A DNA stretch of 64,000 bases, taken from an uncultured Candidatus Saccharibacteria bacterium (GTDB lineage Bacteria; Patescibacteriota; Minisyncoccia; Phycocordibacterales; Phycocordibacteraceae). The notes beneath the pieces were generated by a model. That model ran no database searches and had not been told where the DNA came from. It saw nothing but the letters and a program-made list of their open reading frames with translations. The translations under genes and the position numbers were made by a program. Numbering within the stretch: the first letter of the stretch is position 1; each line of letters opens with the position of its first letter. The stretch covers positions 262,978 through 326,977 of the forward strand of contig CAYMNZ010000001.1 in the NCBI GenBank assembly GCA_964391975.1. The letters run 5' to 3'. Positions 3,556 to 58,771 of this stretch are shown here, in pieces.

Positions 3556-4701
3556 ATGTCACGAGTGAAGCTCACAGAATACCGGGCAAAGTCCCTCATA
3601 CTTGGTGGCGAGTACACTGGCGTCTCGCTATCCTCTTCGAGTGATACGGTCCCTGAAGGAGCATGGGTGGTGAAAGTGGACCAGGGAATTAAAAAGCGCA
3701 TGAAGCAGGGCTTGGTGAAAGTGAATATTTCTTCCAAGGAGATTGGCCCGGCAATTGCTGAGTGGGAGAAGAAAGGATTTTCAAACTTTATTGCAGAGCC
3801 ACTGCTCCCACACGAAGCTTCCGAGGAACAGTATCTCTCACTTGAAAGGGTGCGTGAGGGCATTCGTCTGCTCCATGCGAAGGAAGGCGGCATTGAGATA
3901 GAGGAACATCCAGAGAAGGTAAGGAGCTTCATTCTCACGGAAAGTGTTGCTGGCACGGCAAAGGAGACAGGCGTACCGGAAGAGTTCCTTACTTCGCTTG
4001 TTGATACTTTTGAGAAGAATCATTTCGCGTTTCTCGAGATAAACCCTCTTGTCATCAAAGACGGGAAGGTGCATCTGCTTGATGCGGCGGTGTTGGTTGA
4101 CAGTGCTGCGGAGTTTTTTGTTAAAGGTGCCTGGACTGAAACAGATATTGTCGAAGGGAAGGCGAAACATCAGGCCGAAGAGAATGTGGCTGCACTTCAG
4201 AAGACGACCCCTGCCTCCCTCAAGCTCTCTGTGTTGAATGAGGAGGGTTCCCTCTTCTTTTTGCTTTCCGGCGGCGGAGGCTCAATTGTCATTGCTGACG
4301 AAGCGGCACTCCTTGGGCAGGGAGATGCCATTGGTAACTATGGAGAATACAGCGGTGGTCCGACGCGAGAGGAGACCTATCTCTACACTAAGGAGGTACT
4401 TTCGCTGTTGCTGGCATCTAAGGCTCCTAAGAAGGCGCTCGTAATTGCCGGAGGAGTAGCGAACTTTACTGACGTTGCCAAAACCTTTGCTGGTATTCGT
4501 GACGCGCTGGCAGAAGTGTCTGGAGAAATGAAGAAAGCACGTATCAAGGTATTTATACGCCGCGGCGGCCCGAACGAAGCTAAGGGACTTGCTGACATGA
4601 AAATATTCCTCGACCAGGAAGGTCTTCTGGGGGCTATTCATGGCTCGAGCGCGGTCATCACCAGTGCGGTTGATGACGCCGTTACGTTCATACAAGCATG
4701 A
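3556..4701 (+). CDS. ATP-grasp subunit of an ATP-citrate lyase / citryl-CoA synthetase-like enzyme (SucC/AclB family)
   Basis: N-terminus LTEYRAKSL..WVVKVDQG..VKV and an EINPLVI motif parallel succinyl-CoA synthetase beta. Translationally coupled to the next gene. Confidence 0.55.
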   Translation: MSRVKLTEYRAKSLILGGEYTGVSLSSSSDTVPEGAWVVKVDQGIKKRMKQGLVKVNISSKEIGPAIAEWEKKGFSNFIAEPLLPHEASEEQYLSLERVREGIRLLHAKEGGIEIEEHPEKVRSFILTESVAGTAKETGVPEEFLTSLVDTFEKNHFAFLEINPLVIKDGKVHLLDAAVLVDSAAEFFVKGAWTETDIVEGKAKHQAEENVAALQKTTPASLKLSVLNEEGSLFFLLSGGGGSIVIADEAALLGQGDAIGNYGEYSGGPTREETYLYTKEVLSLLLASKAPKKALVIAGGVANFTDVAKTFAGIRDALAEVSGEMKKARIKVFIRRGGPNEAKGLADMKIFLDQEGLLGAIHGSSAVITSAVDDAVTFIQA

Positions 4702-6473
4702 CCATTCTCGACACCATTAGGGGCGGGGAACGGGGAATTGTTATCGCAGGTAACCACCCTGCCATCGTGCAGTCCATGCTCGATTTCGATTACCTCTCTG
4801 GCAAGGAGCGTTCGATTATCGGTATTGTGACCGGGGCTCGAAAGGCGCAGAAGTATTTCTGGGGAAAGGAAGAGATCCTTGTTCCCTGTTATAAGGATTT
4901 TACATCGGTTCCTGAGAAGGACCGTGTTCGCTTCCTTTTGAACCTTCAATCAGGGCGCCGTGCTTTTGACGTCACCGTTTCTTTCTTTGAGACGTTCCCC
5001 GAGGCTTTGGGCGCTCATCTCTTTGCAGAGAACGTACCAGAAGCGCACGCCATTGAACTTATCCGCCGTTTTGGTGGGAAGAAACTCATTGCAGGACCTT
5101 CAGGTGTGGGCATGTTGGTCCCGGGGCACCTAAAGCTCGGAGCCATAGGAGGAGTCGATATTCCACAGATTATGGCCAGCAAGCTCACCACACCCGGCTC
5201 CATAACTGTTGTGGCTACCTCAGGAGGTATGACGAGTGAGCTCATTCGCGCAGTGACATCTGCAGGGAAGCGACTTTCCTTCTCCTTATGTATTGGAGGC
5301 GATAGGTTTCCGGTCTCATCGCTTGGGGATGTGCTCGCGCTTGCAGAGGCGGATGCGCAGACGAAGGGAATCGTGTACTTCGGCGAGCTTGGCGGGGTGG
5401 ATGAATACGAGATAGTCGAATTGATAAAGGCGAAGAAGCTTACCAAGCCAGTGGTCGCCTACATCGCAGGTATCGTCGACGAGGCGTTCGATGAGCACAT
5501 GCAGTTTGGGCACGCTAAGGCGCTGGTTGCCCACAAGGATGAAAGTGCACGGGCAAAGCGAGAAGCTTTGAGGGAAGTTGGTGTCATTGCACCGGATACC
5601 TTCCCAGAGTTCTTGGAGGCTATGAAGAGTCTCCCTGAGGGGGAATTTAGTGATACCATCATCGATACACAAACGCTTATGGACCGACAGAAAAGTATTC
5701 TTTCAACAAGGGAAGTCATGGACCTCGAGGAGGCACCGACCTTTGTTTCAAACGGACAGTTGGTTAAGAACGACAGGACCTTTGCGTCGTCGGCTCTTGC
5801 TGCGCTTCTTGGTGCTCCTGCCAAGTCCCCTGTTACCAACGCGTATGCGGAGGCCATCTTCACGCTCCTCATCGACCACGGAGGCCATGTCTCAGGTGCC
5901 GTGAACACCATGGTAACTGCGCGCGCAGGAAAGGATCTCGTTTCTTCGCTCACCTCCGGATTGCTTACCATTGGTCCTCGTTTTGGAGGGGCTATTAATG
6001 AGGCTGCGCGTACTTGGAGGGCGGGTGTTGCATCAGGGCAGAACGCAGCTGACTTCGTTGAGGCTTCGACCAAGGGAGGAAAGGTTATCTCTGGTATTGG
6101 GCACCGCAAGTACCGTGTGGGGCTCCCGGACCCTCGTGTAGCAGCGCTTTCAACCTTTGCAGAGCTCTTGAAGTCCCACCCACATTACGACCTTGCCCGC
6201 GAGGTAGAGAAGGTAACGACTGGTAAGAATGGCTCTCTCATCCTTAACGTCGACGGCGTTATTGCTTCCCTGATGCTCGACATTCTTGCTGAGTGCGAAG
6301 GGTACGACGATAAGCAGATTCAGGAGCTTATTGATGCTGAGTTCTTCAATGCGCTCTTCGTCATACCGCGCTCCGTAGGCTTCATCGCGCACTTCATGGA
6401 ACAGAAGGAGAATGACGAGGGGTTGTTCAGGCTCCCAGACGAGCTTTTGTTCGAACGCAAACAGGGAGAGTAG
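4698..6473 (+). CDS. CoA-ligase plus citrate-synthase-like subunit (AclA-like ATP-citrate lyase alpha)
   Basis: N-terminal CoA-binding fold, a GHAKA-like phospho-His region and a C-terminal citrate synthase signature GHRKYRVGLPDPR. A 591 aa length fits AclA. Confidence 0.55.
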   Translation: MTILDTIRGGERGIVIAGNHPAIVQSMLDFDYLSGKERSIIGIVTGARKAQKYFWGKEEILVPCYKDFTSVPEKDRVRFLLNLQSGRRAFDVTVSFFETFPEALGAHLFAENVPEAHAIELIRRFGGKKLIAGPSGVGMLVPGHLKLGAIGGVDIPQIMASKLTTPGSITVVATSGGMTSELIRAVTSAGKRLSFSLCIGGDRFPVSSLGDVLALAEADAQTKGIVYFGELGGVDEYEIVELIKAKKLTKPVVAYIAGIVDEAFDEHMQFGHAKALVAHKDESARAKREALREVGVIAPDTFPEFLEAMKSLPEGEFSDTIIDTQTLMDRQKSILSTREVMDLEEAPTFVSNGQLVKNDRTFASSALAALLGAPAKSPVTNAYAEAIFTLLIDHGGHVSGAVNTMVTARAGKDLVSSLTSGLLTIGPRFGGAINEAARTWRAGVASGQNAADFVEASTKGGKVISGIGHRKYRVGLPDPRVAALSTFAELLKSHPHYDLAREVEKVTTGKNGSLILNVDGVIASLMLDILAECEGYDDKQIQELIDAEFFNALFVIPRSVGFIAHFMEQKENDEGLFRLPDELLFERKQGE

Positions 6474-6475
6474 CC

Positions 6476-7330
6476 ATGTCGACACCAGCGGAGAAAGGAA
6501 AAATCACGCGTGCGACCAACGAAGCTGACCCCACAACCTATTCCTCACTTCCTCCGGAAAAGTTCAAACACACTGACACCATCACCATCCTTGATACGCA
6601 TACGAATGAGGAGGTTGAACGTAAAGTGTATACAGACGACCGTGGGAGTCGGTATTTCGAGATAACTCATTTTCCTCGTACGCAGCTGTTCATCGCCAGA
6701 GTCCTCAAAGGCATCGTGAACGTCACAGACGTGCATATGATAAAACCGGCCCGGAAGGATCAGGAACCACTCTTCCTGTCTAAGGAATTAAGCATTGAGA
6801 AGATTGAACAGAAACCTGACGCGGATCTCCGTGCAGATCTTTATGTGCTCGGAAGCGTCTTCAGAGATGTAGATCGCAGTTTTCCAAAACCGAAGTACAG
6901 ACAGGCTAAGACGGATCTTACTGAACCACGAAAGGGAGGGAACATGCGTATGGATGACGGCCGTACATTTCAGTTTGATTTCGAGTCGCCACACTTCACG
7001 TTTTTCCCTCCTTATAAAATGATGGATGAAGAACTTGATGCGAATTTAGCGAAATTTAGTACTGAAGAGGCGACACGGACGCTTGAGAAACTTACTACAC
7101 TTGCCGAACGCGTTGCGGGCGAAGAAGGTATGGATTTCCTCCGCAGAACGAGTACGGCTGCAGGGCAGAACGCCTTTGATCTCTTCAAACCCGTCTACGG
7201 CTCGACCGTTAGCTATGAAGGCGTAGATGAAGATACCGTGCTGGAGCGCTTTGCCAACGTACTGCGCAAACGAATTAGTGAACACCAGGAAAAGCTACGG
7301 CAACGTCTTACTGAGCTCCAGGGCGCGTAA
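6476..7330 (+). CDS. hypothetical protein
   Basis: Intact 284 aa ORF with somewhat lower GC than its neighbours. No recognisable domains. Confidence 0.45.
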   Translation: MSTPAEKGKITRATNEADPTTYSSLPPEKFKHTDTITILDTHTNEEVERKVYTDDRGSRYFEITHFPRTQLFIARVLKGIVNVTDVHMIKPARKDQEPLFLSKELSIEKIEQKPDADLRADLYVLGSVFRDVDRSFPKPKYRQAKTDLTEPRKGGNMRMDDGRTFQFDFESPHFTFFPPYKMMDEELDANLAKFSTEEATRTLEKLTTLAERVAGEEGMDFLRRTSTAAGQNAFDLFKPVYGSTVSYEGVDEDTVLERFANVLRKRISEHQEKLRQRLTELQGA

Positions 7331-28445: not shown

Positions 28446-28979
28446 ATGACACAGAACCACCCTAAATTTGTCCGCTGGGCCGTGATGCTTGGAATCGTTA
28501 TTGCCCTCAACCTCTTCTTCTTTGCGGCGCGTGCGCTCATCCTCCCCGAGCCAAACTATGAGGACTACTGCCCAGTCAATCTGCAGCCGGCAGCAAGTGA
28601 GCAGGCGTGTGTTGCTCAAGATGGTGTTTGGGTCGCCACTCCTGACAACGCACAGGTCACTGCGGTCGTGAAGCCAAGCCCTGAAGGGTACTGTGACCTC
28701 TACCAAAAGTGCCAGCCGCTCTATGACGAGGCGCAGAAGGAGTATCAGATGTATGCGTTTGCCATCATGCTCGGGCTCGGCATTATCTCCATCATTGTTG
28801 GAGTGCTTCCAATCGGCTCCTCTATTGTCTCAACAGGTCTCTCCTATGGAGGTGTGCTTGCGCTTATCATCGCTGCCTTCGGGTACTGGGGGGAGGCAGG
28901 AAACCTACTCCGTCTCCTTATGTCAGTGATTGCTCTTGGCGCTCTCCTCTACATCGGCATCAAGCGCTTCAGAGACTAG
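28446..28979 (+). CDS. hypothetical membrane protein
   Basis: An N-terminal TM helix and two C-terminal TM helices. Confidence 0.45.
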   Translation: MTQNHPKFVRWAVMLGIVIALNLFFFAARALILPEPNYEDYCPVNLQPAASEQACVAQDGVWVATPDNAQVTAVVKPSPEGYCDLYQKCQPLYDEAQKEYQMYAFAIMLGLGIISIIVGVLPIGSSIVSTGLSYGGVLALIIAAFGYWGEAGNLLRLLMSVIALGALLYIGIKRFRD

Positions 28980-31439: not shown

Positions 31440-31491
31440 GGCCTAGACTTGCGCTCTTTGGCGCTTCGTGGTATAAATTAGAACACAAAAC

Positions 31492-32568
31492 ATGGCTCCG
31501 AAAGCTAAAACTCCAAAGAAAACGCGCGCAAAAGCTGCCTCCACAGCTTCCTTCACGTTCGACGCGCTTACGCTCTCCAAACAGCTGTTGGCCGATATCT
31601 CAGACCGCGCCCGCGAGGTTCTCTCACTACGCTTTGGACTTGGATCCAAGAACACGCGCGAGACGCTTGAAGCAATTGGCGAGCGCTGGGGCATCACCCG
31701 CGAGCGTGTGCGCCAGATTGAAGCGTCCGGGATTGAATCCATTCGCTCCTCAAAGGCATTTAAGGATTCTGAAGAGGCCTTCGATGAGCTTTCTACGTAT
31801 GTTGCTTCTCTTGGAGCTATCGTTCCAGAAGATATGCTTCTCTCCGAGCTATCCTCTGACGAGAAGAGTCGCAATGCATTTCGGTTTCTCTTGGTAGTAG
31901 GAAGTTCCTTTTTCCGTGAACGTGAGACCGAACATTTCTATGCTCGTTGGCATGTTGACCACAAAACTGCTGCCAAGGTGCACGGTGCACTTTCAAAACT
32001 CTATACATCACTCTCTGATGATGAGGTACTTTCCGAAAGTGAACTCTTTGAACGCTTCCTAGGGGAGCTTAAGGATGTGAGTACCGCCTATCACAACGAG
32101 GAGGTTTTGAAGCGTTGGCTCTCTCTTTCAAAAACCATCGACAAGAACCCGCTCTCTGAGTGGGGTCGTGCACACGCACCCGTCATTCGCACCAAGGGCA
32201 TTCGCGATTATGCGTACCTAGTCATCAAGCGTGCCAACGCCCCAATGCACTTCAAGGAGGTTGCGAGCGCCATCACTGAGCTTTTTGCCAAGAAAGCACA
32301 CGTAGCAACCACCCACAACGAACTCATGAAGGACAATCGTTTTGTGCTTGTTGGTCGTGGACTCTACGCGCTTGCAGAATGGGGCTTTGAGCCGGGTGTG
32401 GTGCGCGATGTTATCAAGGAGATACTCAAGAAGCGCGCGCTTTCTCGTGAGGAAGTCATCAGTGAGGTAAAAAAGAAGCGCTATGTGAAGGACAACACCA
32501 TTTTGGTGAATCTCAACGACTCTCGCTACTTCAAACGTCAGAAGGACGGAACCTACTCGATCGCCTAG
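31492..32568 (+). CDS. Lys-rich tail + sigma-70 region 4 HTH + HARE-HTH (RNAP delta-like) domain protein
   Basis: N-terminus PKAKTPKKTRAKAAS. LRFGLG...TLEAIGERWGITRERVRQIEA matches RpoD region 4.2. The C-terminus (HFKEVASAITELF...DNRFVLVGRGLYALAEWGF) resembles HARE-HTH. Confidence 0.55.
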   Translation: MAPKAKTPKKTRAKAASTASFTFDALTLSKQLLADISDRAREVLSLRFGLGSKNTRETLEAIGERWGITRERVRQIEASGIESIRSSKAFKDSEEAFDELSTYVASLGAIVPEDMLLSELSSDEKSRNAFRFLLVVGSSFFRERETEHFYARWHVDHKTAAKVHGALSKLYTSLSDDEVLSESELFERFLGELKDVSTAYHNEEVLKRWLSLSKTIDKNPLSEWGRAHAPVIRTKGIRDYAYLVIKRANAPMHFKEVASAITELFAKKAHVATTHNELMKDNRFVLVGRGLYALAEWGFEPGVVRDVIKEILKKRALSREEVISEVKKKRYVKDNTILVNLNDSRYFKRQKDGTYSIA

Positions 32569-32577
32569 ACTGCACAA

Positions 32578-32599
32578 CCGCCCGGAGGGGCGGTTTTTT
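32578..32599 (+). terminator. intrinsic terminator
   Basis: CCGCCC-GGAG-GGGCGG hairpin followed by TTTTTT. Confidence 0.65.
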
Positions 32600-32616
32600 C
32601 TTGCTATACTTGCCGC

Positions 32617-33966
32617 ATGTCGAGCAGCGGACACGGCGGGGGCGGGCCAATGAGGCTTCCGGGCCTGCATTCAATCGAACACTTCGTCGAGCAGACGAAC
32701 GATGGTGCCGGTGTGTACATTCCTGGATGGGGTCTGATGACCTCATTTGTTATTCTGCTCTTTCTGTTTTTTGCGCTTTCTCCTGCGCAGACGCTTGCTA
32801 ACTTCAATCTTCTTTTCTTCCTTTCACCGATTTGGATAACTTGGTTGCTTGGCCGTTGGGCTATTTTCTCCTTCGTAAAATGGCGCCGCGCCGTCTGGAG
32901 CACGCAGTGGGAGTGGGTATTGCTTGAGATCCGCATCCCACACGACAACATCCGTACACCAGCGTCGATGGAGGCATTCTTCCAATCTCTCCACATCCCG
33001 GCTGGACAGGGAACGTGGTACAAGCGACACGTGTTCGGACGCACCCGTGACTGGTGGAGCTTTGAAATTGCCTCAGTGGAAGGAAAGGTGCGTTTCTACG
33101 TCTGGACCCGTCAGCGTATTCGCCGCGCAACGGAGAGTTTCCTCTACGCACAATACCCAGACATCGAAATTATCGAAGCTGAGGATTACAGCCGTCTCAT
33201 CAACCCGTCGCACGGAGATTGGAACATGTTTGCCTGTGAATACATGTTCACCAAGCCTTCGCCATACCCAATCAAAACCTATGTGCAGTACGGCAACGAC
33301 CGCCCGCATGTGCAGGACCAGGCGTATGTTGACCCCTTTGCAAACGTTATTGAAATGCTCGGTGCGCTTGGTAAGGGTGAGCAGTTCTGGCTGCAGATTA
33401 TCTGCCGTGCAACTCGCCACGATACACAGCATGGGAAGGGAACTATCAAAGAGCAGGCGAAGGCACTTGTTGATGATTTGAGGCGTGAGGCAGCCAAGTT
33501 GAACCCCATGGGCTTCCCGAACGCCAGTCCGGGCATGATGCTCCAGATGGAAGCCATTGAACGAAACGTCGGTAAGTTAAGTTACGACGTTGGTATTCGT
33601 AGCATTTACTTTGCTAAGCCCGATAAGTTTGTTGGCATGATGGCCGGTATCGCCGTGCAGCTCATGAAGGTCTACAACTCTGAGATTTTCAACGGTCTCG
33701 TGCCAGCACCGCTGTGGTCTGAGAAATTCAACGACTATCCTTGGGAAGACATCGGCGGGAGGCGTCAGGCTCGTGAAATGCATGAGGTGGTCGAAATGTA
33801 CCGCAGGCGCTCCTATTTCCATCCACCCTACAGGGGTCCATGGCTAGTGATGAGCGTTGAGGAGCTTGCTACCATCTTCCATATTCCAACCAAGCACGTA
33901 CAAACACCGGGTCTTGAGCGTAAAGAGACCTCCACCGGGAAGCCGCCGACTAACCTTCCACTCTAG
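32617..33966 (+). CDS. hypothetical membrane protein (449 aa)
   Basis: Gly-rich N-terminus, 2-3 TM helices and a large soluble domain. No homology recognised. Confidence 0.45.
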   Translation: MSSSGHGGGGPMRLPGLHSIEHFVEQTNDGAGVYIPGWGLMTSFVILLFLFFALSPAQTLANFNLLFFLSPIWITWLLGRWAIFSFVKWRRAVWSTQWEWVLLEIRIPHDNIRTPASMEAFFQSLHIPAGQGTWYKRHVFGRTRDWWSFEIASVEGKVRFYVWTRQRIRRATESFLYAQYPDIEIIEAEDYSRLINPSHGDWNMFACEYMFTKPSPYPIKTYVQYGNDRPHVQDQAYVDPFANVIEMLGALGKGEQFWLQIICRATRHDTQHGKGTIKEQAKALVDDLRREAAKLNPMGFPNASPGMMLQMEAIERNVGKLSYDVGIRSIYFAKPDKFVGMMAGIAVQLMKVYNSEIFNGLVPAPLWSEKFNDYPWEDIGGRRQAREMHEVVEMYRRRSYFHPPYRGPWLVMSVEELATIFHIPTKHVQTPGLERKETSTGKPPTNLPL

Positions 33967-53518: not shown

Positions 53519-54643
53519 ATGGCTCTTTTTGGCCGCTCATCGAAGACCGTCGCTTTAATCGATATCGGCTCCTCCTCAATCGGTGGAGGCTATGCCACCC
53601 TGGACAAAAACGGGGTGCCGCGCCTGCATTACGCTACTCGCGTACCCATTGAACTCCATGACAGGCCAATGATTGCGCTTGATATGTTGAAGGCCCTCGG
53701 CATGCTTGGTAACAAGCTCATCAACGAAGGAGCTCCTCAGCTTCACAAGGTACTCGGCAGCGGGAAAGTGGATACAATTCTCGCCTCTATCGGCTCACCG
53801 TGGCAGGAGACCGCTGTGCGTAGCGAGATTATCGAGAAGATTAAGCCTTTTACGTTTACGAAGGCCATCATGAATGAAGCACTCGCCAATGGTGCCAAGG
53901 TTTCGGAAGGAAGAGTTCCTTCGGGAGAGCTCGTGGTCGCCACGCTTCTTAACGGCTACGAAACCAAAAATCCCTTTGGCAAGCGAGCTCAGCGGGCAGA
54001 GCTCGTGGTCCTCTCCTCGACCATTGATCGCTCCATGGCAGAGGGAATGCGCGACGTGCTCGGGCACCTTTATCACACGCGAGATATTGAAGTCTCTGCG
54101 TTTGCACCTATTGCTTACAGCGTCCTGCGAGACCTCTACCCCCACGAAAAAGATTTCCTGGTCATGCACGTCTCGGGAGAGGCAACTGACCTCGCGCTGG
54201 TGAAGCGAGGCATTCTCGTTGATGTCGCGTCTATCACCTCAGGCGTTAATGGTCTTGAACGGGCAGCCCGCAAAGGGGAGCCACTTTCAATGACCGCTAA
54301 CGGAGATCCAGCTCCAAAGGTTCCCAAGGTACCTGAGAGCAGTTCAGCAAAAAAAGAGTGGTTGGAGTCGCTTGCTACCTGTCTTAAGGATTTCTCAAAG
54401 CGCCGCGCACTCCCGCGAACCGTCTTCCTTCTCGCGGACGAGGAGGCTCGCACCTATCTCACCAAAATTCTTGATGACCAGATGCTTCACTCCCTATGGC
54501 TCTCAGACGAGCCGCTCACGGTTATTCCTTCACTCCCGCAGCATCTCTCTGACCGCATTACCTGCGACGAGGGGTGCGACAAAGACCTCTTCATTTCCAT
54601 GCTTGCCCTCTCGATAGGCAAGGACACGGGTATTGAGGCCTAG
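53519..54643 (+). CDS. actin-like (ASKHA) ATPase domain protein, PilM/FtsA-like
   Basis: VALIDIGSSSIGGGYA phosphate-1 motif and a second MHVSGEATDLALV motif. Confidence 0.4.
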   Translation: MALFGRSSKTVALIDIGSSSIGGGYATLDKNGVPRLHYATRVPIELHDRPMIALDMLKALGMLGNKLINEGAPQLHKVLGSGKVDTILASIGSPWQETAVRSEIIEKIKPFTFTKAIMNEALANGAKVSEGRVPSGELVVATLLNGYETKNPFGKRAQRAELVVLSSTIDRSMAEGMRDVLGHLYHTRDIEVSAFAPIAYSVLRDLYPHEKDFLVMHVSGEATDLALVKRGILVDVASITSGVNGLERAARKGEPLSMTANGDPAPKVPKVPESSSAKKEWLESLATCLKDFSKRRALPRTVFLLADEEARTYLTKILDDQMLHSLWLSDEPLTVIPSLPQHLSDRITCDEGCDKDLFISMLALSIGKDTGIEA

Positions 54644-54712: not shown

Positions 54713-55942
54713 ATGCCGAAGACTATCAATGACATCATCCCGCCATCGCGCCGCCGCGCAATGGAAATGGAAGCAGATTCCGGGATGCCTCCTCCGCCCT
54801 CGCAGCACACGTCTTCCTACGATCGACCTCGTAAGAAGTTCCCGTGGGGACTTGTCATTGCCATTCTTATCATCCTTGCTGTATCCGTAGGAGCGCTCTA
54901 CGCATTTGCAGGTGCACGCGTGGAAGTTGAGCCAACCTCAGGGGATGCATCAATCACTGGAGATTTCATTGCAACCGCTGCGGCAGGCGAGTTGCCTTTC
55001 AGCGTGGTAGCTGTCGACAAGATTGCTAGCAAGAAGGTTGAGGCTGAAAGCACCGAGACCGTTAACGATGCAGCTCAGGGCACCGTCACCGTTTCGAACA
55101 CCTCGGAAGAGATTCAGAAGTTCGTCAAGAACACCCGTTTCGAGACCCCAGACGGCCTTATCTTCAAGGCTCAGGACGCTATTACGGTCCCCGCAGGCTC
55201 CCCAGGGGCTCCAGGCACGGTTAAAATCACGGTATACGCAGAGTCTGCAGGCGATAAGTACAATGTTGGCCCCACCTCCTTCACCCTCCCAGGTCTTGCG
55301 AGCTCCGACCTTGGCACGCAGGTAACCGGTAAGTCAGAGGAAGCGATGAGCGGCGGATTCTCCGGCACACGTCCTTCAGTCTCTGAAGCAACGCGCGAGA
55401 AGGAGTACCCAGCGATGGAGAAGTCACTCACTGAAGAACTTGAGACGATGGTAGAGGCACAGGTACCACAAGGCTACGTACTCATTCCTGGTTCAATCTT
55501 CACGACCTTCACGCCGCAGCCTGACACCTCGAGCGCTGCAGGATCTGTTGAAGTGCGACTCAAGGGAACTGCAACTGCAGTTATCTTCCCTGAAGGTCAG
55601 TTGGCCGCTGCGATTGCCGCACGTTCGCTTGGTGTGTACGGCGGTGAGGCAGTGAAGCTCGCCGATGCTGATGAGCTTACCCTCACCGCAACGACGGCTC
55701 CTACTGACACTGAGTTTGCGTTCACACTTTCTGGTTCAACAACGATTCTGTGGGTGGTCGACCCCTCTCGTATCGCTGAGGCAGTGGCAGGGAAGAAGCG
55801 AGATGCCGCCCAGGTCATCCTTGCAGGCTACCCGGAGGTGGAGAAGGCGGTCCTCGTACTTCGTCCCTTCTGGGCAAGTACCTTCCCAGCTGACCCAGCA
55901 GAGATAACGGTTACGGTCGCAGGGGAAGAAGCGCCTAAGTAG
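54713..55942 (+). CDS. hypothetical membrane-anchored protein
   Basis: Pro-rich N-terminus, one TM helix and a Thr/Ala/Gly-rich ectodomain. High GC. Confidence 0.45.
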   Translation: MPKTINDIIPPSRRRAMEMEADSGMPPPPSQHTSSYDRPRKKFPWGLVIAILIILAVSVGALYAFAGARVEVEPTSGDASITGDFIATAAAGELPFSVVAVDKIASKKVEAESTETVNDAAQGTVTVSNTSEEIQKFVKNTRFETPDGLIFKAQDAITVPAGSPGAPGTVKITVYAESAGDKYNVGPTSFTLPGLASSDLGTQVTGKSEEAMSGGFSGTRPSVSEATREKEYPAMEKSLTEELETMVEAQVPQGYVLIPGSIFTTFTPQPDTSSAAGSVEVRLKGTATAVIFPEGQLAAAIAARSLGVYGGEAVKLADADELTLTATTAPTDTEFAFTLSGSTTILWVVDPSRIAEAVAGKKRDAAQVILAGYPEVEKAVLVLRPFWASTFPADPAEITVTVAGEEAPK

Positions 55943-57835: not shown

Positions 57836-58771
57836 ATGGAATACCACATCACACTTCCTTCTAAGCCGCGTGTTGTCTCGGAAGAGGGCCTTCAGGGCAC
57901 CTACGAGATTGATTCGCTTTACCCAGGCTACGGCCATACGCTCGGCAACTCACTCCGCCGCATCATCCTTTCGTCTCTTTCAGGCGCAACGGTGACTTCG
58001 GTCAAGATTGAGGACGTCCAGCACGAGTTCGCCACCATCGAGGGCGTTCGCGAGTCCGTCATGGAGATTCTTTTGAACCTTAAGCGCGTGCACTTCGTCC
58101 TCCAGGGCGATGAGCCACAGATTGTGCGCCTCTCCGTAAAGGGCCCTAAGCAGGTGACTGCAGGGGATTTCACCCTTCCGTCCCAGGTTCAGGTCATGAA
58201 CCCTGACGTTCACATTGCTGATATTGCTGGCAAGATTGGTCTCGAGCTCGAGGCTACAATTGAACGCGGACTTGGTTACGTTCCCCGCGAGCAGCTCACT
58301 AAGGAGAAGGTAGACATTGGCACCATTGCCCTTGATGCAACCTTCACTCCAATTCGCCGCGTGAACTACGAAGTAGAGAACATGCGCGTTGGTGACCGCA
58401 CTGACTTCAACCGCCTCAAGATTCTTATTGAGACCAACGGAACGATTTCTCCCCGCGAGGCACTTGAGAAGTCTATTGAGATTATGATTCACCAGCTCAA
58501 GGCCGTCGTCGGTTTCCAGGAGGAGACTGAAGAGGAGGAGGCTATGGGTGGTGCAGCTGAGAAGAAAGACAGCTCGAAGGTAAAGGTTGCTGACCTTGGC
58601 CTCTCCGCCCGCATCGTCTCAGCACTCGAGGAGGCAGGTATTAAGAGCGGCGCAGGACTTGCTCGCAAGACCGCATCGTCTCTTAAGGAGCTCGATGGCA
58701 TCGGCGACAAGGCAGTCGAGGAAATCTCGGAGGCACTTGCCGGCTACGGCCTCACCCTCAAGGGCGAATAA
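57836..58771 (+). CDS. rpoA: DNA-directed RNA polymerase subunit alpha
   Basis: N-terminal dimerisation domain (GYGHTLGNSLRR) and C-terminal alpha-CTD HhH. Confidence 0.95.
   Translation: MEYHITLPSKPRVVSEEGLQGTYEIDSLYPGYGHTLGNSLRRIILSSLSGATVTSVKIEDVQHEFATIEGVRESVMEILLNLKRVHFVLQGDEPQIVRLSVKGPKQVTAGDFTLPSQVQVMNPDVHIADIAGKIGLELEATIERGLGYVPREQLTKEKVDIGTIALDATFTPIRRVNYEVENMRVGDRTDFNRLKILIETNGTISPREALEKSIEIMIHQLKAVVGFQEETEEEEAMGGAAEKKDSSKVKVADLGLSARIVSALEEAGIKSGAGLARKTASSLKELDGIGDKAVEEISEALAGYGLTLKGE

Follow-up and report, generated by a model that had tools for sequence, protein, structure and literature searches.

The locus and its gene

We focus here on a gene at positions 31492 to 32568 (forward strand) of a 64,000-nucleotide stretch of contig CAYMNZ010000001.1, from assembly GCA_964391975.1 of a bacterium of the Patescibacteria, also called the Candidate Phyla Radiation (CPR); this whole stretch is referred to below as the window, and positions are counted within it. 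On profile matches and a predicted structure, the encoded protein of 358 amino acids (aa) is a σ70-type region 4 (σ4) followed by four tandem, mutually related winged helices (WH1 to WH4) of the HARE helix-turn-helix (HARE-HTH) type, and we call it the σ4-WH protein. A preliminary description of the locus had read it as a chimera of three parts, namely a histone-like Lys-rich tail, a σ region 4.2 and a C-terminal domain resembling the HARE-HTH of the RNA polymerase (RNAP) δ subunit. Both peptide strings quoted there are found exactly (PKAKTPKKTRAKAAS at aa 3–17 and TLEAIGERWGITRERVRQIEA at aa 58–78), while the three-part division gives way, in the AlphaFold model and in hhalign comparisons, to σ4 and then four related winged helices. 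The features of the locus are as follows.

31492 to 32568, + strand: complete coding sequence, 358 aa plus stop codon (open reading frame list, homologue support)
31449 to 31477, + strand: putative promoter, −35 TTGCGC at 31449–31454, 17-nt spacer, −10 TATAAA at 31472–31477
31492 to 31557, + strand: basic, Lys-rich, disordered N-terminal tail, aa 1–22, containing TPKK (predicted local distance difference test, pLDDT, 54–66)
31558 to 31767, + strand: σ70 region 4 (4.1, 4.2 HTH and C-terminal helix), aa 23–92 (Pfam, NCBIfam, PDB, Foldseek)
31768 to 31956, + strand: predicted winged helix 1, aa 93–155, acidic, less conserved (AlphaFold2 topology, hhalign)
31957 to 32187, + strand: predicted winged helix 2, aa 156–232, near neutral, less conserved (AlphaFold2 model, hhalign)
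32188 to 32391, + strand: winged helix 3, the HARE-HTH, aa 233–300, basic, most conserved domain (PF05066, TIGR04567)
32392 to 32565, + strand: predicted winged helix 4, aa 301–358, basic, conserved (AlphaFold2 model, hhalign)
32576 to 32603, + strand: intrinsic-terminator-like hairpin AACCGCCC GGAG GGGCGGTT, then a T run

The identical protein (100%; P0001) was found on 10 contigs in a homology search. The hairpin at 32576–32595, which begins 8 nt past the stop codon, has 8 base pairs, of which 6 are G-C, and a loop of 4, and together with the T run it agrees with the earlier claim that the gene has its own terminator. Scans with Rfam and for tRNAs gave no family or tRNA overlapping 31492–32568, and the antisense open reading frames (ORFs) at this locus are without support.

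A complete σ region 4

The Pfam model Sigma70_r4 (PF04545) matches aa 32–85 with 47.3 bits against a gathering score of 24.1 (E 1.4e-12), and the NCBIfam models for RpoD, RpoS and MzaA match solely via their region-4 ends, the last ~60 model positions. A sequence search of the PDB returned σ region-4 chains (σA/σ70) as its sole matches, over aa 31–91 and with E down to 5e-10, and a profile search reached E 3e-20 and spanned all of 1tty and 4g6d. The domain is 35–43% identical to solved σ4 structures, superposes on them in Foldseek at 1–2.5 Å, and resembles primary σ far more than generic LuxR/GerE-type HTHs. When it is aligned with Staphylococcus aureus σA, ...GITRERVRQIEA... pairs with ...GVTRERIRQIEA..., the TRERxRQIE helix standing opposite the same helix. 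The preliminary description was thus right that the protein carries region 4, in fact a full one, and equally right that regions 2 and 3 are missing: Pfam and NCBIfam models of regions 1.2, 2 and 3 match nowhere in the protein, the remainder of which is predicted to fold as four winged helices. Since σ2 and σ3 were looked for and are absent, the protein is not a σ factor.

The residues kept in σ4 are those that matter for reading DNA. Its recognition helix bears R70, E71, R72, R74 and Q75, and across 133 diverse relatives the invariant positions of the domain are R47, L59, G63, R70, E71, R72, R74 and Q75. By hand alignment, we take these eight to be R562, L573, G577, R584, E585, R586, R588 and Q589 of Escherichia coli σ70. 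The equivalent residues are said to touch the −35 element in the structure of Taq σA region 4 with DNA that Campbell and colleagues reportedly described in 2002, and PDB entry 1KU7 itself is among the sequence and structure matches of σ4 (PDB, Foldseek). Activators contact a basic patch of E. coli σ70; its residues K593, R596 and K597, again by hand alignment, give way here to A/S, E and S.

Four related winged helices

The structural model was computed by AlphaFold from a 137-sequence alignment, composed of 17 close homologues and a diverse set of 120 further homologues from the profile search, the latter being down to 36% identical to one another and 37–59% identical to the window protein. 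It has a mean pLDDT of 93.1 and a predicted template modelling score (pTM) of 0.77; an earlier run on 47 close homologues had a pLDDT of 66 and a middle region that was unusable. In the model, a disordered tail (1–22) precedes the σ4 helices (25–86) and a short C-terminal helix (88–92), and these are followed by WH1 (94–154), WH2 (157–226), WH3, which is the HARE-HTH (237–294), and WH4 (304–357), with WH1, WH2 and WH4 having the topology H-b-H-H-b-b. Comparison of the domain sub-alignments by hhalign relates WH1 to WH2 (probability 85.5%, E 5.7e-6), WH2 to WH4 (84.6%, E 6.8e-6) and HARE to WH4 (75%, E 2.5e-5), and σ4 to none of the winged helices of the protein. We also considered the middle region (aa 93–232) as a divergent σ2/σ3 and rejected this, as no Pfam family matches it and it is predicted to form two winged helices related to the HARE/WH4 repeats.

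In the third winged helix, the RNAP δ model TIGR04567 matches aa 239–297 (model positions 7–70) at E 2.4e-6, its 27.6 bits falling short of the cut-off of 42. Sigma70_r4 and HARE-HTH are both matched by each of the 133 diverse relatives, HARE-HTH at E ≤ 0.01 and at best 1.6e-17, and the database carries a precomputed PF05066 match for most of the close homologues. With every diverse relative matching, the profile-based HARE-HTH assignment is solid for the family, though borderline in the window protein; profile searches for the two named domains thus leave region 4 significant and HARE-HTH clear at the family level. A HARE-HTH of the RNAP-δ kind is thereby present, as the preliminary description had it, although it is the third of four winged helices rather than the C-terminal third of the protein. 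The last 58 aa of the window protein form, in the model, a folded winged helix of net charge +7 (family median +5). For WH4, relatives give weak Pfam matches to Trans_reg_C, TFIIE_beta and WH_Rok, and some relatives give a weak match to TBPIP.

Conservation and charge divide the protein unevenly. Per-domain conservation is 0.68 for HARE, 0.57 for WH4, 0.50 for σ4 and 0.35 for both WH1 and WH2, and the family's median net charges are +5 for σ4, −3 for WH1, −1 for WH2 and +5 each for HARE and WH4. Across the 133 relatives, the invariant winged-helix residues are G225, N276, L278, G288, R289, G290, Y292 and T336; within WH3 those listed as invariant are T273, H275, N276, L278, G288, R289, G290 and Y292.

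In a Foldseek comparison of the model with the PDB, the best full-length match was the four-winged-helix C-terminus of SelB (1lva; E 2e-4, 13% identity, template modelling, TM, score 0.22–0.28), with further tandem winged-helix matches to UFL1/DDRGK1, Dcc1 and RPC62. The chimeras of σA region 4 with the β flap tip (7kug_D, 8d5v_B and 8d5v_D) align over 109–114 columns (113–114 for 7kug_D and 8d5v_B), extending past σ4, with TM scores of 0.69–0.73 compared with 0.62–0.65 for σ4 alone. The database of viral models BFVD contains no viral protein with the whole architecture of σ4 and four winged helices.

The N-terminal tail

The tail of the window protein has a net charge of +6 in 22 aa. At least 5 Lys residues are present in the tails of 37 of 47 close-clade sequences, compared with 2 of the 133 diverse relatives, whose median tail length is 5 aa; judged from these sequences, it was the close clade that added the Lys-rich tail, which is not a feature of the family as a whole. 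Close-clade tails are of the TPKK/PKKA type and adjoin σ4, and a basic tail in this place fits a domain that works on DNA. Of the histone-like tail in the preliminary description, its basic character therefore holds, while its sequence shows no homology to histones and its occurrence is confined to the close clade.

Distribution and published counterparts

The homology search gave >7800 significant matches. The best 120 of these are all full-length (345–379 aa) and ≥70% identical, come from metagenome-assembled genomes (MAGs) of Patescibacteria, Paceibacterota or Parcubacteria, and bear names such as 'hypothetical protein', 'sigma factor-like helix-turn-helix DNA-binding protein' and 'HARE-type protein'. 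When 1.84 billion cluster representatives were scanned exhaustively with HMMER, 540 clusters (50% identity) reached E ≤ 1e-30 and 1048 reached E ≤ 1e-10; most of the 150 clusters listed are 330–380 aa long and align end to end at 35–50% identity, and the distant clusters have named members from Campbellbacteria and Ryanbacteria. With one genome per species and two clade-specific peptide patterns, at least 590 GTDB species were positive. Database labels include 'RNA polymerase sigma-70 region 4 domain-containing protein' in UniRef (one case) and 'DNA-directed RNA polymerase delta subunit' in JGI (some members).

Mean column identity over the 133 relatives is 31%. We further kept 80 related loci, from MAGs labelled Kaiser-, Nomura-, Taylor- and Lloydbacteria and several with doubtful labels, and the median identity to the corresponding window protein is there 68% for the σ4-WH protein, 70% for YchF, 63% for leucyl-tRNA synthetase (LeuRS), 43% for MltG and 39% for the 449-aa protein encoded downstream (orf449), a comparison biased somewhat in favour of the σ4-WH protein, by similarity to which the loci were picked. 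All named relatives are Patescibacteria except for suspect labels. What had looked like a single chimera is thus a very large, ancient and vertically inherited family restricted to the Patescibacteria.

Some labels and gene calls within this set call for comment. On a 7981-bp contig labelled 'Bacillota bacterium' (L017, JBLNCF010000009.1), which is probably mis-binned, there is a copy of 72% identity with the gene order unchanged. Many loci, including L002, L004 and L018, are from third-party annotation (TPA) MAGs named 'uncultured Candidatus Saccharibacteria bacterium' with a Paceibacteria-type gene order and ~70% identity, and these names look generic. In one relative of 659 aa (P0184), a multi-pass membrane segment, taken as SecF-like, precedes the protein as an N-terminal fusion; most likely this is a gene-calling read-through, which reveals a different upstream neighbour in that clade.

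The family very probably has two published counterparts, one of them a member of the other. In Supplementary Data 1 of Méheust et al. 2019 (PMC6744442), family 3.6k.fam21714 comprises 1320 proteins of median length 346 aa, cytoplasmic and marked 'unknown', with Sigma70_r4 as their sole Pfam domain; it occurs in 1250 CPR, 2 non-CPR bacterial and 0 archaeal genomes, is classed as 'enriched', and is the sole CPR-enriched Sigma70_r4 family among 921 core families, in a data set whose RpoD-type family fam00428 is present in 2026 CPR genomes (PMC6744442). In Tables S1 and S2 of Wang et al. 2023 (PMC10633639), the gene SEML1_0294 of Southlakia epibionticum (1050 bp, 349 aa; 'RpoS' according to PROKKA) has PF04545 at 27–72 and PF05066 at 225–283, is parsed by DPAM into a tri-helical domain at 6–155 (reference, the σ70 chain of 5VT0) and 'winged' domains at 156–215, 216–285 and 286–345, and is flagged as core and Patescibacteria-enriched. 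Transposon sequencing (Tn-seq) counted 24 insertions in this gene in the input DNA and then 1, 1 and 2, and it is scored essential (ES) at T0–T2; the RpoD of the same species is complete (r1.2, r2, r3 and r4), essential and adjoins dnaG, and these two genes carry the only 'sigma' annotations in the Tn-seq table (PMC10633639). The window protein fits the profile of both counterparts, with 358 aa against 346 and 349, region 4 at 32–85, HARE at 239–297, a Patescibacteria-restricted distribution, the same Pfam domains in the same positions and the same division into σ4 and a winged part, and the family of the window protein is very probably fam21714, including SEML1_0294. The labels 'unknown', 'RpoS' and 'primary sigma factor', which the counterparts carry from PROKKA, KEGG and family tables, are automatic, and the σ labels are wrong. 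A literature search on HARE-HTH or Sigma70_r4 in CPR found no paper that discusses the family; Méheust 2019 and Wang 2023 only tabulate it.

Promoters and gene neighbourhood

The order LeuRS, σ4-WH gene, orf449, MltG/YceG is kept in the 80 related loci, where LeuRS is present in 66, orf449 in 73 and MltG in 60, with YchF further upstream in 43. In the window, orf449 (32617–33966, + strand) encodes a predicted membrane protein without a Pfam or NCBIfam match; it lies directly downstream on the same strand in all 73 loci that have it, at ~39% identity.

In 68 of the 80 loci, the sequence upstream of the gene agrees with TTGACA-N17-TATAAT at 10 of 12 positions; its usual form is TTGAC[TG], a 17-nt spacer closing with TGn, and TATAA[AC]. 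These orthologue promoters (L002–L075) lie ~40 nt upstream of the gene. Only 9 nt separate the end of the −10 hexamer from the ATG in about half of the loci, implying that the mRNA there is leaderless or nearly so. With so many orthologue promoters carrying such elements, −35 elements of the TTGAC type are in use in this lineage; going by the promoter sequences, expression of the gene is probably strong and constitutive, and one may speculate that the near-consensus −35 of the orthologues could permit autoregulation. In the putative promoter of the window gene, the spacer ends in TGG (an extended −10), TGGTATAAA maps to 31469, and 14 nt separate the −10 from the ATG; a strict consensus promoter scan did not call this TTGCGC/TATAAA promoter.

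No other σ-like ORF, and no rpoD of this lineage, was found in the window, in the 80 loci or in the 10 kb past the window end, as represented on L081 (JGI 3300020219, Ga0163146_10000001, 742107 bp). This contig, probably a near-complete genome, encodes the purF product of the window with the same neighbours, and downstream of the window it carries grpE, dnaK, dnaJ, fructose-bisphosphate aldolase and a histidine kinase.

Elsewhere in the window, two adjacent genes at 3556–4701 and 4698–6473 (both + strand), which sit among uvrB, uvrA and uvrC, resemble the two subunits of an ATP-citrate lyase or of a citryl-CoA synthetase/lyase: the first has Citrate_bind and ATP-citrate synthase ATP-grasp domains, and the second has CoA-ligase and citrate synthase C-terminal domains. 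To our knowledge, Patescibacteria are normally without enzymes of the tricarboxylic acid cycle, and such a pair is unusual there. ORFs of 374, 409, 284 and 177 aa (53519–54643, 54713–55942, 6476–7330 and 28446–28979, all + strand) have no Pfam or NCBIfam match, and the last of these is kept upstream of leuS in 14 loci. Five tRNA genes (Ala-TGC, Pro-CGG, Val-CAC, Pro-TGG and Ala-GGC) lie on both strands between 13474 and 17703.

What the protein may do

Any account of the σ4-WH protein has to explain its frozen DNA-reading residues, the basic and conserved winged helices at its far end and the acidic, variable pair between them, together with its housekeeping-level conservation, its restriction to CPR and its probable essentiality beside a normal RpoD. 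The reading we prefer, which we hold tentatively and at slightly under an even chance, is that of a constitutively made general factor, essential and CPR-specific, that acts on promoter DNA, on RNAP or on both; its DNA specificity, its contact with RNAP and its physiological role are what we infer from the features above. The 4.2 HTH of σ4 would read TTGAC-like hexamers, because every −35-contacting residue of primary σ is kept; HARE and WH4 would hold neighbouring DNA or β′; and the acidic, variable WH1 and WH2 would serve as a spacer between them. The preliminary description had suggested competition for the −35 element or the β flap in an anti-σ-like manner, or a nucleoid-associated transcription factor. 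A purely inhibitory, anti-σ role fits poorly, since the probable orthologue SEML1_0294 is essential and conservation is at housekeeping level. A sharper form of the proposal, which we think rather unlikely, is an extra, essential and lineage-defining initiation factor or RNAP subunit, in which a detached second σ4 reads −35-type DNA while the four HARE-type winged helices tether it to upstream DNA or to β′; by analogy, such a factor would resemble TFIIE and RPC62, tandem winged-helix factors of the polymerases of archaea and eukaryotes.

Several points weigh against a general factor of this kind. First of all, a σ4 that reads the same hexamer as the σ4 of RpoD should compete with it, which fits essentiality poorly. 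Second, the β flap and the β′ jaw are far apart on RNAP, and simultaneous canonical docking of σ4 and HARE is doubtful. A weak hint that WH1, or the helix after σ4, lies near the flap groove, where the flap-tip helix binds, also comes from the compactness of the model, the domain merged by DPAM and the Foldseek alignments that run past σ4, and WH1 packed on σ4 in this way could block that groove. Third, the pattern TTGAC-N16-19-TAnAAn has no site on either strand of the 64-kb window (1.4 expected from shuffles), and the −35 of the window gene itself (TTGCGC) is weak; TGnTAnAAn motifs number only 12 in the window, and either weak −35 elements seem to be the rule in the promoters of this genome, or promoters are few because its genes are tightly packed on one strand. 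Fourth, Pfam HARE-HTH (PF05066) matches aa 239–297 of the window protein with 24.5 bits, just below the gathering score of 25.9 (E 3.6e-5), and a phmmer search of the PDB with HARE and WH4 alone gave chance matches only and no δ chain. Finally, orthology with SEML1_0294 and fam21714 is deduced from length, domain positions, domain parse and family flags rather than from a sequence alignment, and both the restriction to CPR and the essentiality, being taken from the literature, depend on it.

Among the other explanations, the one that survives best, although we consider it unlikely, is a free-standing global DNA-binding protein, nucleoid-associated or a global repressor, that makes no stable contact with RNAP and binds TTGAC-like and neighbouring sites through σ4 and the basic winged helices, joined in the close clade by the tail, thereby shaping the chromosome or setting basal promoter occupancy. 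The invariance of the DNA-contact residues speaks for it, as do the three basic modules with the additional basic tail of the close clade, the strong constitutive promoter of the orthologues, the common binding of nucleic acid by tandem winged-helix arrays, and the essentiality and abundance that are typical of major nucleoid proteins. Against this, σ4 is present in full, with both region 4.1 and the C-terminal helix, which suggests that more than DNA binding is conserved, and the HARE-HTH of δ is an RNAP-binding module.

Quite improbable, in our view, is the converse, a protein that binds RNAP alone, with σ4 on the β flap tip and HARE on β′, where it competes with region 4 of σA or with NusA and works as a δ-like recycling or selectivity factor or as a σ antagonist, DNA reading being unimportant. 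Both named domains do have known docking sites on RNAP, and JGI labels some members as the RNAP δ subunit. However, the residues invariant in the family are precisely the DNA-contacting ones, though conservation averages 0.50 in σ4 and 31% in the family; the acidic tail, the active element of δ, is missing; an essential gene is not what one would expect for an antagonist; and, as a weak hint, the flap groove is possibly partly occupied by WH1.

A complete σ4 without σ2 or σ3, with counterparts labelled RpoS or primary σ factor by PROKKA and KEGG, could also be the region-4 half of a two-subunit or alternative σ of the SigO–RsoA kind, whose region-2 functions would come from a partner protein. 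We regard this as very improbable: no σ2-like gene is linked, the conserved neighbours being LeuRS, a membrane protein and MltG; the window and the 80 loci hold no other σ-like ORF; one of the two 'sigma' annotations of S. epibionticum is a complete RpoD with its own region 4; and the recognition residues are those for the housekeeping −35 element rather than for a new specificity. A related idea, that the protein supplies region 4 to a truncated RpoD, is not supported, as the RpoD of S. epibionticum is complete and the RpoD-type family occurs in 2026 CPR genomes. A stand-in for a missing C-terminal domain (CTD) of the α subunit was likewise rejected, as the RpoA of the window (57836–58771) has RNA_pol_A_CTD.

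Barely credible, finally, is an RNA-binding factor whose winged helices bind structured RNA while σ4 tethers it to the β flap, thus coupling transcription to RNA folding, to processing or to translation of leaderless mRNAs, for although the SelB array (1lva), of which WH3–4 bind the SECIS element, is the closest full-length match in fold, and the β flap does lie at the RNA exit, that match is architectural only, HARE-HTH domains are otherwise tied to DNA or RNAP, and the DNA-contact residues of σ4 are invariant.

A large part of bacterial diversity consists of Patescibacteria, whose transcription control is almost unknown; the σ4-WH protein is probably one of only ~100 families that distinguish them from other bacteria, is as conserved as translation factors are, and has in SEML1_0294 a probable counterpart that is essential in S. 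epibionticum, the sole species with genetic data, and is the only σ-related protein there besides RpoD. If it is a general initiation factor or RNAP subunit, it would represent a new form of bacterial transcription machinery, and if it is in addition an extra essential factor, promoter recognition in much of bacterial diversity would differ architecturally from the textbook holoenzyme. The known partners of the named domains, namely −35 DNA and the β flap for σ4 and β′ for HARE, make the question directly testable, and the wrong database labels (RpoS, primary σ factor, δ subunit) deserve correction.

Comparison with known systems

That the family exists was known, in uncharacterised and mis-annotated form; the searchable literature contains no description of its architecture of σ4 and four winged helices or of the invariance of its −35 residues. 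With the group-1/2 σ70 factors (RpoD/SigA, RpoS), the protein shares a full 4.1–4.2 HTH with its C-terminal helix and the same TRERxRQIE recognition helix. It differs from them in that σ4 is N-terminal instead of C-terminal and in that regions 1.2, 2 and 3 are lacking, and it is thus unable to act as σ factors do in binding core, melting DNA and reading the −10 element.

A HARE-type winged helix is common to the protein and to the δ subunit of Firmicutes (RpoE, TIGR04567), in which, however, the C-terminal region is polyanionic with a net charge of −47 and constitutes the active element (Pei et al.). In the σ4-WH protein, the score is under the equivalog cut-off (27.6 versus 42), the HARE domain belongs to a set of four repeats joined to σ4, and the C-terminus is predicted to be a basic winged helix. 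With a score below the cut-off and no acidic tail, the sequence is not that of a δ orthologue.

From computational work, Aravind and Iyer (2012, Cell Cycle 11:119) reportedly noted HARE-HTH domains also in bacterial proteins that combine features of the RNAP α subunit and of σ, which we treat as a lead and not as a test. CPR genomes were hardly available in 2012. No α-CTD-like domain was detected in the window protein, and the RpoA of this genome keeps its CTD.

The likeness to tandem winged-helix arrays (WH1–4 of SelB; TFIIE-β, RPC62 and Dcc1) consists in four consecutive winged helices and is one of architecture only, at 10–16% identity and TM scores <0.3; SelB, moreover, binds RNA and is part of a translation factor. 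Finally, SigO–RsoA of Bacillus subtilis provides a precedent for a polypeptide with region 4 and without region 2. The σ4-WH protein departs from it in having no linked partner gene and a different architecture, and in belonging to a family that is universal and housekeeping rather than stress-specific.

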